Part shown: positions 2,034 to 8,674 of the stretch, piece by piece | Position numbering within the stretch: position 1 is the stretch's first letter | Layout of the letters: every line of letters begins with the position of its first letter | IMG/VR virus record: IMGVR_UViG_2700989509_000022 | Reading direction: 5' to 3' (one strand) | DNA length: 14,452 nucleotides | Source: a virus | Lineage: Duplodnaviria > Heunggongvirae > Uroviricota > Caudoviricetes | The notes under the pieces: model-generated | Told to the model about the DNA's origin: nothing | Database searches by the model: none | What the model saw: the letters and a program-made list of their open reading frames with translations, nothing else | Program-made: the position numbers and the translations under genes

Positions 2034-2678
2034 TTAAATCAAATGAATGTCATCATCCAATAATTCATTAGTAGTAATACTACCTTTTTTGAAAAAATTT
2101 TCATTTGCCTCAGCAATTTTTGCATCATTAACAAATTCATCACACATCCCAAAATAATGAAAAAATCTATTTAGTTTACATATTCCAATGGTATAGTGCC
2201 CTTTAGGTGTTTTGTCCACATAAACACGATTTGCTTTTATAATATGCATCTCATAATCATCTATATGTGGATGAACGATGCGAAATGATGCAGATGCAGT
2301 TGGATAGTTTTTGCGCCGCCCCCCATTTATTACGGGTTCAAATAACACTTCATTTTTACCTTTGAATTCATTGCAGTCAGGACATACTACACATAGATTC
2401 TTAGGTTCAAAAATAAAACATAGATATTGAGATTTTGGCACAATATGCTCTATAGGAGCAGCTTGTGCAGCTCTTACCCCAATAGGCTCATGACAATATA
2501 CACATTCTAGCTTTTGTTCTTCTCTGTAATGATTTCTAATTTCTGCACGGAGAACTTGCAAATCATCATCTCCCCAGTTGGTATGCTTAAAATCTGGAGA
2601 AGACAATTTTTTCTCAATAATATCTAATGACTCTGCGCTGAATCTAATTGGATTTTTAATTTTTGGCATAAATTTCAC
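2034..2678 (-). CDS. HNH endonuclease, PtuB-like (Septu-like nuclease component)
   Basis: CVYCHEP ... IEHIVPKS ... CVVCPDCNEFKGKN gives CxxC, a catalytic His and CxxCxxCN, i.e. an HNH ββα-metal motif. Visibly AT-rich. Start is GTG at 2678 or ATG at 2669, with AGGTG upstream. Overlaps the upstream ATPase by 14-23 nt. Confidence 0.7.
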   Translation of the reverse strand: MKFMPKIKNPIRFSAESLDIIEKKLSSPDFKHTNWGDDDLQVLRAEIRNHYREEQKLECVYCHEPIGVRAAQAAPIEHIVPKSQYLCFIFEPKNLCVVCPDCNEFKGKNEVLFEPVINGGRRKNYPTASASFRIVHPHIDDYEMHIIKANRVYVDKTPKGHYTIGICKLNRFFHYFGMCDEFVNDAKIAEANENFFKKGSITTNELLDDDIHLI

Positions 2679-4029
2679 ACACCTGAGATACGGAATTTAC
2701 GAGTTCATTAATAGGGTCATTACTATTAACGTTTTCAAGGAGAAGCTGGAGTTGTTTTAATTCACGCCAATTATCATCTGTTACTAACTTAGCAGTCTTA
2801 ACTTTTGAAAGTAAATTGAAAGCTAATCTGGCAATGTATTCATTCATAATGCCAGGGGCATCAAATAGTTCCGCAAGTTGATAGTCTGCAGACCGGTTGC
2901 TAAAGTATTTTGCTTTATAAAGATAACTTTTCGACAAAGATGTTATATAACAACCTTTATTCGGCAAATTGGATATTATTTGTGGTGAATGAGTTGCAAT
3001 TATGAATTGACAACCTGAGTAAGTTAAAAATGCTTTTGTTAACATAATGATAAACTCTTCCTGCCATCGAGGATGCAAGCTTATTTCCGGTTCATCAATT
3101 AGTATTATAGAACCATCAGTTATATGCCCTGCAATTCCAAGCAACATCACTAATAAACATTGTTCTCCCGAGCTCGCACGTTTAAGTGACATGGGACCAT
3201 AGCTTTTTTTTATGAGTCGCATATCCATCAATCTCATGAAGCCAGCGTTCATAAGTTTAAGAATTGATCTAGAAAAATAATTATTCGCATAAGTCGAGCC
3301 AACCAATGTTTCACCATTGGTAAAATCGACTGACAAGGTTACAGCCCTACGTTCAGGTTCAAATCGATTAATTTCAACCAGTGCTTCGTAAATATCATGA
3401 CGTGATTCGGAGTTTAACTTTAAGAGACTCTCAATATTCTTCCTGTCAATTTTTATATTGTATTTTAAATATAACTCCTTAACTTCCGTTAATATCTCAT
3501 CTGAATATACACCAATGAAGTTATAGTCAGGAGTGTCCGGTCCGTTGTAAGTTGGTTTAAATACAAACTCTATATGGGGCTCAAAATCAATAGAATGAAA
3601 AACATCGAGTAAATTTGCAGGATTTTCTGAATAAGCAAGTTTCTCTAGCCAACCTCTCGCTGCTGAAGATAAAAGGGATACGGCATTTGATACGCCGAAG
3701 GGGCCTTCTCCACGCATACCCACATAGCGATAATTATTTTCTTTCCTTTGGTGATTTAATGACCTACGCCCTGGAGGGAATTTATCGAATGGGCTGGTAG
3801 ATACGGCAATTAACTTTGGTGTTATTTCTCTGTCAAATAATGGATTAAAAGTTTTCAAGAAATGAACATCTTGAATACAGTCTTTAGCAATCTGAGATAA
3901 CAATCTGCTTTTTCCAACGCCATTTTTACCTACAATTACTGTAAAAATATTCGCATTATCAGAAACATCACCTTCTACAGCAAGTTTTAAGGTTCGACTA
4001 TCATGATGGGTATAATATAGTCTTTTCAT
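2656..4029 (-). CDS. ABC/AAA_21-type ATPase, PtuA-like (Septu-like ATPase component)
   Basis: Walker A VGKNGVGKS, signature-like ASSGEQ, Walker B IILIDEPEISLHP and H-loop IIATHSPQI in a 457-aa ORF. AT-rich, and the stop overlaps the start of the HNH gene. Confidence 0.75.
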   Translation of the reverse strand: MKRLYYTHHDSRTLKLAVEGDVSDNANIFTVIVGKNGVGKSRLLSQIAKDCIQDVHFLKTFNPLFDREITPKLIAVSTSPFDKFPPGRRSLNHQRKENNYRYVGMRGEGPFGVSNAVSLLSSAARGWLEKLAYSENPANLLDVFHSIDFEPHIEFVFKPTYNGPDTPDYNFIGVYSDEILTEVKELYLKYNIKIDRKNIESLLKLNSESRHDIYEALVEINRFEPERRAVTLSVDFTNGETLVGSTYANNYFSRSILKLMNAGFMRLMDMRLIKKSYGPMSLKRASSGEQCLLVMLLGIAGHITDGSIILIDEPEISLHPRWQEEFIIMLTKAFLTYSGCQFIIATHSPQIISNLPNKGCYITSLSKSYLYKAKYFSNRSADYQLAELFDAPGIMNEYIARLAFNLLSKVKTAKLVTDDNWRELKQLQLLLENVNSNDPINELVNSVSQVCEIYAKN

Positions 4030-6349: not shown

Positions 6350-6624
6350 CTAGTAACGTCTAAAATATCGAACATTTCCCTGATAAAATGCCAGTATGCG
6401 CTGCATAACTTCACTCATTGTGGTGGTTTCTTCCGGCAGTTCTGCCTGCGCTGGCTGTTCCTGCTGAACGTTGTTATAAGCCACACGCCAGGTGTACGCG
6501 CTTTTATCAACAAAACCAGCCTTTTTCAGTTCCCATAGTTCGTTCAGCACTTCTTCACGCGCGCAGCAAGTTCTATGGATGTGGCTTTTCCCATTGCTTT
6601 CAGTGCGTCAAAAACAGTCTCCAT
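6350..6624 (-). pseudogene. Ren-like winged-helix protein gene, apparent single-base frameshift
   Basis: ATG at 6624 with GGGAGG 6 nt upstream gives [26 protein letters not shown] then TGA. The adjacent frame continues [26 protein letters not shown]...[18 protein letters not shown] with no ATG. The joined product resembles lambda Ren as I recall it, and the gene sits directly after the P-like gene as ren does in lambda. Confidence 0.5.
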
Positions 6625-6656
6625 AAATTTCCTCCCGGTAAAAATTACTTCTCAAC

Positions 6657-7322
6657 TCAGACAAGCCCAGCCGCTTTCCGGCGTTCATATTCCTGTTTCA
6701 GCAACTCAATTGGCGTTGGCCCCGACGGGCGTTTGGGTGCCGCCAGTTGTCGCCGGACTGGCGGAACACTCAGGCCGTTACTAACATGCTTTGCCCATTT
6801 CGTCAGCTGCCGTTCTGCAAGCCGTTTTAACTCCCCTTCGGTCATCTGCCGCTCAATCCCCTTTGAACGCATCTCGAGGCAAATGTGATACAGCACAGGC
6901 TGAGACCACGGGTATTTATCGCTCCCGTCGTATCGCCAGGACTCGTTGCGCCAGCGACGGTACTCCTCCATCACGGCATCCACCGTCAGACCGAATGGAT
7001 TGGCTCCGCTTTCAGAAATCAGCGCCACAAACTCAGCCAGGTCCGGAGGCCATGTTTCACCCGCCCGGCAGCGGTCCATGCACTGGCGGCAGACCTGTCG
7101 GATTTGCTGCTCAGTCATCGCACCAATCTGTGCAATCCAGAGCTTCGAAGGTGCGGCCCCGTTCTTCTGGGTCCAGCGGTTCGAATAAACCTCCCCCATG
7201 AGTTCCCACAGCTTCCAGGCCGTTTCCGTCGCTGATAAATCCGTTTTCACGTTCCCACTGCTCACGTGCTGCCCGAATTTCCTGAACTGCCCGTGATGCG
7301 GTGTCACCTGGTGCTGCTGCAT
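6657..7322 (-). CDS. Replication protein P-like (helicase loader)
   Basis: YPWSQPVLYHICLEMRSKGIERQMTEGELKRLAERQLTKWAKHV parallels the lambda P C-terminal region (recalled). ATG at 7322 with AGGGGG 6 nt upstream. The first ~210 nt overlap the O-like gene out of frame; alternative in-frame starts exist at 7199 and 7118. Confidence 0.7.
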   Translation of the reverse strand: MQQHQVTPHHGQFRKFGQHVSSGNVKTDLSATETAWKLWELMGEVYSNRWTQKNGAAPSKLWIAQIGAMTEQQIRQVCRQCMDRCRAGETWPPDLAEFVALISESGANPFGLTVDAVMEEYRRWRNESWRYDGSDKYPWSQPVLYHICLEMRSKGIERQMTEGELKRLAERQLTKWAKHVSNGLSVPPVRRQLAAPKRPSGPTPIELLKQEYERRKAAGLV

Positions 7323-8151
7323 GGTTTACCCCCTTGCTGACTGGTTTAACCTGCGCCCTGACGTGATTTACGTGACGGGCGAATTTCTGCTCCCACTGAA
7401 TCTGCGTAAACACTTTCCCCTCAGCAGCCCAGTAGTCCCGGAAGGCGGCAAGTTCAGCAGGTGTGAATTCTGTCTCCGGCAAAGCCATCCCCCACAACGC
7501 AGCCCGTCGTCGAAAATCCCGTGACGGATACCAGCTATCGGTCATCGGAAATTTTTCGATGGGTTCGCTCAGGCCATCCAGGAATACAGGAGGTGCAGCC
7601 TGTAACGACAAAACTTTCTGCTCACTGGTCGGAGCACTCTCGCGTGCGTTATGTGTGGGGTTTAGCTCTTTGGGTTCCTTTGGGTTCCGTGATCCGTTTT
7701 TGGGTGTCTTTGATGGAAAATTTGGGTGTCTTTGGTTATTTTCCATGCAGCTAAGAGTTCCGTTTTTGGGTCTGTTTTGTGCTGAAACATAACCATTTTC
7801 GGTACTGTTTTTATTAACAGCACCGATTTTACCCACCTTTAAAGACTCCCGTTTTTGGGTGTATTCAGGCTCGGCAACACTTTCTTCTACACCGATAAGT
7901 CGGTACACCACAATTTGCTTTGTTCTGCCTTTTCTCTCACCGGTATCAACAATTAACCCAATCTCCATCAGGTGTCGTAAGCTGTCCTGCACAGTCTTTT
8001 TGTTCAGTTCCGTTACTTCTGCCAGTGCAGATACAGACGGGTATGCACACAAATCGGCACCGCACATATCAGCAAGCCAGGTCAATACTGACTTACTGGA
8101 TGAACTGCCGGTTTTCACCTTTTTAGCCCATCGTAGTGCATCGATACTCAT
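7111..8151 (-). CDS. Replication initiator, O-like HTH N-terminus with DnaT-like C-terminal region
   Basis: N-terminus MSIDALRWAKK...SVSALAEVTELNKKTVQDSLRHLMEIGLI is a winged-helix/HTH. It sits between the YdaT-like and P-like genes as O does in lambdoid phages. ATG at 8151 with a G-rich RBS; the track extends the ORF to 8226. Confidence 0.65.
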   Translation of the reverse strand: MSIDALRWAKKVKTGSSSSKSVLTWLADMCGADLCAYPSVSALAEVTELNKKTVQDSLRHLMEIGLIVDTGERKGRTKQIVVYRLIGVEESVAEPEYTQKRESLKVGKIGAVNKNSTENGYVSAQNRPKNGTLSCMENNQRHPNFPSKTPKNGSRNPKEPKELNPTHNARESAPTSEQKVLSLQAAPPVFLDGLSEPIEKFPMTDSWYPSRDFRRRAALWGMALPETEFTPAELAAFRDYWAAEGKVFTQIQWEQKFARHVNHVRAQVKPVSKGVNHAAAPGDTASRAVQEIRAAREQWERENGFISDGNGLEAVGTHGGGLFEPLDPEERGRTFEALDCTDWCDD

Positions 8152-8674
8152 ACGACCCCCTGGCAGACATTTGTTTATCTGCAAAGTAATATTGATATTG
8201 CTGACGATACGCATGCTTGAAAGCAATAGCTTTTTCTATAAGCTCGTCAGTCTCACGTTCCACAACAGATGGATCCGCAAAAAGCAGCCCGGACTCCACC
8301 ACATCGCCATATTCTTTGTTTAATCCGGCGATCATGTACGTAATGCTTTTTCCATCACTGATCTCACGATACAGCCTGAAATCACTAATTCGGATAGCCT
8401 CCATAATTGCCGGAATCAGCGCCGTGAATTTTTTCCGCTTATCCCTGGTGTCGATAGCTTTCCAGCGTTCGAATATCTTCACCCGGTTAACGCACAGCGC
8501 CCGTTGATCAACCTCGCCATCATTAAACGTGACGCGTTGAACATCGATGTTCGGACGTTCTTTCAGAGCCCAGAATGCTTCCGTGATTAATATCGTCGCC
8601 TGCTCCTGTGTCATTCCTGGTCGGCATACCCAGGCATCCAGAGCCTCACAAACCTGTTCAGGGGTGATTTTCAT
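8123..8674 (-). CDS. YdaT-like (CII-position) prophage regulatory protein
   Basis: MKITPEQVCEALDAW... and KIFERWKAIDTRDKRKKFTALIPAIMEAI resemble Rac YdaT as I recall it. It occupies the position after the cro-like gene. Confidence 0.5.
   Translation of the reverse strand: MKITPEQVCEALDAWVCRPGMTQEQATILITEAFWALKERPNIDVQRVTFNDGEVDQRALCVNRVKIFERWKAIDTRDKRKKFTALIPAIMEAIRISDFRLYREISDGKSITYMIAGLNKEYGDVVESGLLFADPSVVERETDELIEKAIAFKHAYRQQYQYYFADKQMSARGSYEYRCTTMG

Follow-up and report, generated by a model that had tools for sequence, protein, structure and literature searches.

In bacteriophage lambda, the gene for the origin-binding initiator O is followed, in an early operon next to the cI/cro-type regulators, by the gene for the helicase loader P; the replication origin lies within gene O, and the O and P genes overlap by only a few bases. 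A module of the same layout is present in the stretch analysed here, 14,452 nucleotides (nt) of Caudoviricetes DNA (IMG/VR virus record IMGVR_UViG_2700989509_000022; hereafter the window, numbered from its first letter), where an initiator gene containing iteron-like repeats precedes a gene for a loader homologous to lambda P, again beside cI/cro-type regulators. Here, however, the two genes share 212 nt, and we consider it likely that this overlap is real, conserved and translated in both frames, with the loader made from an ATG at position 7322. The preliminary description of the window had reported an out-of-frame overlap of about 210 nt at 7111-7322, a strong ribosome-binding site with an ATG at 7322 and an initiator stop at 7111, all of which proved exact (the site reads AAGGGGG at 7335..7329, and both frames are open over 70 codons). 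It had left the choice between a shorter loader, an initiator extended by a frameshift and dual coding; comparison of related loci supports the last of these.

Same-strand overlapping genes are well known in phages; lambda Rz/Rz1 and the A/B/K/E genes of phiX174 likewise yield two proteins from one strand in different frames. The pair described here differs from them in that the overlap is terminal and reciprocal, between two essential partner genes that each carry an ancestral domain; no small gene is embedded in a larger one, and the dominant frame switches midway. The initiator also differs from its lambda counterpart, in that it comprises a winged helix-turn-helix, a DnaT-like domain and a C-terminal extension, and is not a lambda O homologue. 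It resembles Escherichia coli DnaT over one domain but has, in addition, an origin-binding N-terminus and a tail that extends about 64 residues past the DnaT-like region; it is the coding sequence of this tail that overlaps the loader gene. In the O-like/P-like (VdhL-related) modules of Vibrio phages the loader similarly adjoins a lambda-O-like gene (PMC11087808); the word "overlap" is absent from that paper, and no description of an initiator/loader overlap was found in the searchable literature (open-access papers). The initiator/loader overlap appears to be a new and well-supported example of a functional same-strand overlapping pair, to judge from frames that are open beyond chance and an independent, conserved internal start, the latter weaker in two Vibrio phages.

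The loader is read in the +1 frame of the initiator, with loader codon position 1 falling on initiator codon position 2 (Table 1). Its Shine-Dalgarno (SD) site sits within initiator codons Lys273-Gly274-Val275, and its ATG is built from initiator His277 (cAT) and the first base of Ala278 (G). The window alone does not set the overlap apart from chance: 15 of the 304 codons in the +1 frame of the initiator-only part are stops, corresponding to a chance of about 3% of 70 open codons, and when the initiator codons of the window were resampled synonymously the first 41 loader codons stayed open in 59% of trials. By sequence comparison, the overlap is significant only once related loci are added.

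Scanning a single genome from each species gave 37 loci; two more distant loader relatives (L038 and L039), which could not be aligned over loader residue Lys53, were left out. In 33 of the 37 Enterobacterales loci, an upstream open reading frame (ORF) in the -1 frame of the loader ends 17-68 nt past the Lys53 codon; the distance is 53-68 nt in 29 of these 33 overlapping loci and 17-20 nt in two others. The overlap measures 149-242 nt (mode 215, most often 215 or 212), the loader ATG stands 42-57 codons upstream of Lys53, and in many loci a loader-frame stop lies 0-2 codons 5' of that ATG. The hosts include Escherichia, Citrobacter, Enterobacter, Klebsiella, Salmonella, Pectobacterium, Erwinia, Rahnella, Serratia, Rouxiella and Limnobaculum. 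The same +1 relation recurs at about 30% identity in two Vibrio phages, D75, where the overlap is 212 nt, and 199E37-1, where it is 194 nt. Alignment of homologues, which the preliminary description had suggested, shortened neither gene: initiator homologues do not end before the equivalent of 7322, and loader homologues do not start at that of 7118.

To compare the possible loader starts, SD strength was calculated as the energy of the duplex with the 3' end of 16S RNA and averaged over the 33 loci. The mean was -9.5 kcal/mol at Met1 (7322), -5.5 kcal/mol at Met42 (7199) and -4.0 kcal/mol at Met69 (7118), with -2.7 kcal/mol at background positions. Met1 is ATG in 33 of 33 loci (for the choice of this ATG in each locus, see below); Met42 is ATG in 30 and CTG in three (L021, L023 and L024), and Met69 is not a start codon in nine. 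The SD site of the window, at -11.8 kcal/mol, is stronger than any position in the initiator-only part, and among the positions of its own initiator gene the Met1 site ranks in the strongest 0-8% in 30 of the 33 loci; in the other three it is still within the strongest 15%. Across all 33, the initiator codon at the loader ATG is NAT followed by G, encoding His, Asn, Tyr or Asp and then Ala, Val, Gly or Glu; because the initiator amino acid varies, it is the ATG that is conserved and not the initiator residue. Similarly, initiator Gly274 is near-invariant within a variable linker because its GG belongs to the SD site. These features make ATG 7322 the probable loader start, while starts at 7079 and 7118 were ruled out on homology. 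RNA structure around the loader start (7280..7400) was no more stable than that of shuffled sequence (z = -0.27), and a structured coupling element there was dropped from consideration.

Both frames are kept open across the related loci. Between Met1 and Met42 the loader frame contains no stops in 1314 codons, where 55 would be expected from the 4.2% density of +1 stops in the initiator-only parts. When initiator codons were resampled synonymously in 26 lineages (one representative each, below 85% nt identity), the product of the probabilities of an open loader frame was 1e-7.1, a nominal value given the relatedness discussed below. In the reciprocal resampling of loader synonymous codons, with amino acids fixed, the observed initiator stop was reached in 19% of trials on average, and the corresponding nominal product over the 26 lineages was 1e-20.7.

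The constraint is divided between the two frames along the overlap. Entropies at codon positions 1/2/3, read in the initiator frame, were 1.17/1.07/1.57 in the DnaT-like domain, which is initiator only, and 1.15/1.00/1.46 for initiator residues 277-300 within the overlap; the latter residues show the initiator-type codon pattern and no loader-type pattern. The pattern flips to the loader frame at about initiator residue 311. Read in the loader frame, entropies were 0.80/0.65/1.27 for loader residues 42-70 in the overlap and about 0.8/0.65/1.54 in the loader-only region, so that loader third positions are less free within the overlap (1.27 vs 1.54, p=0.008), which fits a need to avoid initiator-frame stops. 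Opposite the K-N-G kept by the loader, E/K and R/W exchanges occur in the initiator and are silent in the loader. AlphaFold models of the two proteins are arranged in the same manner: initiator helix 287-302 lies over the disordered loader residues 10-26, and the ordered loader helices, from residue 29, lie over the disordered initiator tail. In viral overprinted genes, each site has been found to be constrained mainly through one of the frames, with disorder in the overprinted parts (PMC8227390; bioRxiv 10.1101/229690), and the initiator/loader overlap shows this pattern.

From its sequence, the downstream protein is a lambda-P-family helicase loader, for which DnaB loading and recruitment by the initiator are predicted. 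Pfam PF06992 matched loader residues 56-188 (E=1.1e-16, 61.4 bits against a cut-off of 26), and the 236-position profile of PHROG 109, "P-like helicase loader", matched residues 19-220 (E=4e-63). A profile of loader homologues matched the lambda P chains 8v9t/9oa1, with profile positions 67-188 corresponding to lambda P residues 80-202; since position 67 pairs with lambda P residue 80, the loader should have about 66 residues before that point. When the AlphaFold model of the loader was searched with Foldseek, the top matches were the 9oa1 lambda P chains, aligned over 197-211 columns and thus nearly full length, with probability 1.00 and a template-modelling score of about 0.46-0.51, and the predicted fold and domain order fit solved lambda P, a flexible N-terminal segment being followed by domains II, III and IV. 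In the model, residues 1-28 are disordered (predicted local distance difference test, pLDDT, below 50) and a helix at residues 29-46, with pLDDT of about 86-88, spans Met42. Domain I of lambda P (residues 1-29; the first 29-40) has been described as a flexible, probably disordered "N-terminal lasso" (PMC12661323); the variable, disordered segment of 28-37 residues that precedes the conserved domain of the loader matches this layout. In an alignment of 29 loader homologues, strong conservation begins at about residue 38 (AWKLWELMGEVYSNRWTQKNG), and W50, K53, N54, G55, P58 and W62, all upstream of Met69, are invariant. Residues 1-37 are variable with indels, yet the frame is open from the Met in homologues down to 48-56% identity, over which range the protein length is 215-223 residues.

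The alternative that survives best is that the loader starts only at Met42, which the preliminary description had offered as one of two shorter forms; the overlap would then be 89 nt, and the 41 open codons upstream would be untranslated. Met42 is preserved as ATG in most loci, with an SD site of moderate strength that reaches -9.3 kcal/mol, many database proteins of about 180 residues and phrog_33198 begin there, and a start at this position would account for the absence of amino-acid constraint on residues 1-37. Against it, Met42 is replaced by CTG in the three loci named above, has the weaker SD site and sits in the middle of a confidently predicted helix, and the AWxLW motif immediately upstream is conserved in the loader frame. 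This motif persists where there is no second frame to maintain it: two stand-alone lambda-P-like genes in Erwinia (L028 2492..3118 and L035 2474..3043), which have no initiator gene upstream and no overlapping ORF, keep PAWRLWDLM or PVWQLWDTM ahead of Met42. A start at Met42 only would also leave the upstream ATG, its strong SD site and the stop-free stretch unexplained. Met42 is probably not the main start, and its exclusive use seems improbable. The two Erwinia genes are flanked by host-type genes (a TtcA-like ATPase; a phosphotransferase system transporter) and may be remnants or domesticated loaders.

The DnaT-like DNA-binding domain of the initiator matched PF17948 with 61.5 bits against a cut-off of 25 over residues 201-267, and is confidently folded in the model; the NCBIfam DnaT model aligned initiator residues 194-282 with DnaT residues 82-170 of 179, at 91.5 bits against an equivalog cut-off of 201. 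No Pfam match to Phage_rep_O, the lambda O family, was obtained at E<=0.01, while PHROG replication initiation (O-like) families matched the N-terminus weakly. On this sequence evidence, the label "O-like" given in the preliminary description holds for position and role, but not for family membership. In an alignment of 28 initiator homologues the tail can be aligned to its end at 51-57% identity; the segment SRAVQxIxxA is conserved in it, and an acidic motif closes it. Other E. coli prophages combine the C-terminal half of the protein (81-90% identity) with N-terminal domains that are unrelated, for example of the DUF1376 or T5orf172 type. The linker-coding part of the gene (7669..7865) contains iteron-like repeats, namely four copies of a 24-nt unit with the core CCGTTTTTGGGT (at 7687, 7753, 7786 and 7842; 7687..7865) and three copies of TTTGGGTGTCTTTG (at 7669, 7699 and 7721; 7669..7734), which are read in the protein as repeated PKNG motifs in the disordered linker. 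By analogy with lambda, these repeats are possibly the replication origin of the prophage.

Table 1. Features of the initiator and loader genes in the window.
Feature	Coordinates	Strand	Details
Initiator ("O-like") ORF	8151..7111	minus	ATG 8151, TGA 7113..7111; 346 residues
Winged helix-turn-helix			initiator residues 1-85; Pfam HTH_36 (weak)
Disordered linker			initiator residues 89-197; AlphaFold model
DnaT-like DNA-binding domain	7351..7551	minus	initiator residues 201-267; PF17948, E=6.5e-17
Short linker, then helix			initiator C-terminal part, helix at residues 287-302 (SRAVQEIRAAREQWERE); AlphaFold model
Disordered acidic tail			initiator residues 307-346; AlphaFold pLDDT 30-39
SD site AAGGGGG	7335..7329	minus	6 nt 5' of the loader ATG 7322
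Loader (lambda-P-like) ORF, long form	7322..6657	minus	ATG 7322..7320, TGA 6659..6657; 221 residues
Putative dual-coding overlap (212 nt)	7111..7322	minus	initiator residues 277-346 and loader residues 1-70
Upstream part of the overlap	7212..7319	minus	initiator frame constrained; loader residues 2-37 form a variable, predicted-disordered tail
Downstream part of the overlap	7114..7211	minus	loader frame (residues 38-70) carries most constraint; initiator residues 314-345 disordered, acidic
Internal loader ATG, Met42	7199..7197	minus	in frame
Internal loader ATG, Met69	7118..7116	minus	within ATGACTGA (7111..7118); overlaps the initiator stop TGA 7113..7111
Internal loader ATG, Met82	7079	minus	in frame

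We propose that the initiator would be translated from 8151 to its stop at 7111, and that the loader would start at its own SD site and ATG inside the initiator gene, between the DnaT-like domain and the C-terminal helix, with both proteins presumably made from one early transcript. Over about 7322..7212, selection acts on the initiator linker and helix 287-302, and the loader tail read from the same bases matches lambda P domain I in position; over about 7211..7111, selection acts mainly on the loader, whose first helices of the domain II equivalent lie there, and the disordered acidic tail of the initiator is still maintained in length. Each gene may have been extended over its neighbour by overprinting, and such mutual extension would explain why a disordered segment is only ever laid over a structured one. 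The overlap would physically tie the C-terminal module of the initiator to its own loader, and recombination would swap the origin-binding N-terminal domains upstream, in the disordered linker.

Several observations weigh against this proposal. Translation from ATG 7322 is deduced from sequence, and the first 37 or so loader residues show no amino-acid constraint; the arguments that they are translated are the conserved start, the SD site and the lack of stops. The ATG was chosen in each locus as the one with the best SD site or the first, which biases the figure of 33 of 33 for its retention, and in both Vibrio phages the first ATG has a weak SD site (-3.5 and -3.8 kcal/mol). The lineages are phylogenetically related, and the multiplied probabilities of open frames therefore overstate significance, although the direction of the result is clear. 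In two intact loci, L019 and L037, the initiator frame ends about 11-12 codons earlier, which indicates that the extreme tail of the initiator is dispensable. Finally, RefSeq and two phage records annotate shorter loaders.

A second alternative is that a programmed +1 frameshift in the overlap produces an initiator-loader fusion, besides or in place of independent initiation. The loader does lie in the +1 frame of the initiator, a G-run (CAUGGGGGAGG) occurs at 7200..7190, and phrog_15931, a profile of 482 positions, matches both initiator residues 161-345 and loader residues 10-221, with matches that overlap in profile coordinates; fused members therefore exist, and it seems that normal proteins are grouped there with fused or frameshifted initiator-loader forms. 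However, the conserved SD site and ATG argue for independent initiation and make a frameshift unnecessary, no stalling stop or rare codon was noticed in the initiator frame (no systematic scan for shift sites was made), RNA structure at 7280..7400 was not significant, and the fused database proteins are mostly single-member clusters. The fusion in phrog_15931 and the frameshifted Leclercia copy described below are more simply read as errors or pseudogenes, and we regard programmed frameshifting as very unlikely.

Still less probable is a loader starting at Met69, the other short form of the preliminary description, by termination-reinitiation coupling at ATGACTGA with an overlap of 8 nt. ATGA-type junctions are a common form of coupling, and this start is the one used in NZ_LR134079 by PGAP, the NCBI annotation pipeline, and in the Rac-SA53 record. 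It would, however, exclude the six invariant residues from W50 to W62 and a stretch with a loader-type codon pattern, the codon is not a start in nine of the 33 loci and its SD site is weak (-4.0 kcal/mol); in lambda P, moreover, 79 residues precede the point that corresponds to loader residue 67. That the long initiator tail results from a frameshift, a possibility also raised in the preliminary description, or from a sequencing error, or that this copy is a pseudogene, can be dismissed despite the Leclercia frameshift and the occurrence of single-member fused proteins in databases, since 33 loci and the Vibrio phages share this architecture, including where the initiator stops and a tail that can be aligned, the window is 100% identical to the complete genome of E. 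coli NCTC9112 over 7000..7450 (451 bases compared), and the initiator frame is held open against expectation.

The Leclercia copy is L034, from Leclercia adecarboxylata NCTC13032, in which the loader frame runs into the initiator tail frame just after Met42 at a G-run (MGGNILEPVDAEEW, about 2650..2690). The initiator frame also ends early there, and the copy is either a pseudogene or the product of a homopolymer sequencing error.

Returning to the dual-coding overlap, we put forward, as a tentative and rather unlikely extension, that it is a selected interlock that goes beyond compaction: the shared DNA would encode the loader-facing helix and tail of the initiator together with the lasso and first helices of the loader, and ribosomes crossing the loader start would help to set the initiator:loader ratio. 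As part of this idea, initiation at Met1 as well as at Met42 might yield two loader isoforms, only one of which has the lasso. If the idea were correct, the cognate pair would be inseparable by the recombination that shuffles origin-binding domains.

The annotation of the loader is inconsistent. In NCTC9112 (L040), the RefSeq loader produced by PGAP has 153 residues (NZ_LR134079.1 2044079..2044540, equivalent to 7118..6657 of the window), starting at the equivalent of 7118, as does that of the Rac-SA53 record; PPompW/Stx2a records give 140 residues, starting at the equivalent of 7079. The protein database clusters of the loader have lengths of 221-223, about 180, 153 and 140 residues, and although NCBI already holds the 221-residue form as a "replication protein", annotation within E. 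coli varies. These lengths reflect the choices of gene callers and so could not decide the start, for which reason the loci were analysed at the DNA level. In the 140- and 153-residue versions, 68-81 residues are missing from the N-terminus, among them the invariant residues and the helices with which the lambda-P-like fold begins, and the 153-residue RefSeq loader is almost certainly too short. No NCBIfam model matched the loader, and NCBIfam therefore does not explain the start chosen by PGAP. The same shortening is to be expected from any gene caller that penalises long same-strand overlaps.

The genes around the module (YdaT-like, Cro/CI-like and DicA-like) mark it as part of the early-right region of a Rac/PPompW-type prophage. 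One of them, the YdaT-like gene (8674..8123, minus strand), overlaps the start of the initiator (ATG 8151) by 29 nt (8123..8151), and the same overlap is present in the PPompW records. On the 3' side of the loader, at about 6420..6625 (minus strand), RefSeq annotates a frameshifted, truncated DUF1627 (YdaW-like) pseudogene, where the window has short ORFs only. A record outside the Enterobacterales, PP818812.1 ("Actinobacillus phage vB_Apl-pPE4"), carries the module at 93-97% identity to E. coli, which is unexpectedly close for a Pasteurellaceae host.

Of 5,426 complete E. coli genomes, 1,253 carry the replication module, in up to six copies each, and the practical consequence of the overlap is that the annotated form of this common loader gene is often truncated. 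Single-base changes exist that inactivate one frame and leave the protein of the other unaltered, and the question of dual coding is thus directly testable. If both frames are translated as proposed, the locus would clearly exemplify two essential, interacting replication proteins encoded by shared DNA, in which the constraint passes between the frames and ordered segments lie over disordered ones, and it would offer a useful natural system for the study of overprinting and of module linkage in mosaic phage genomes.

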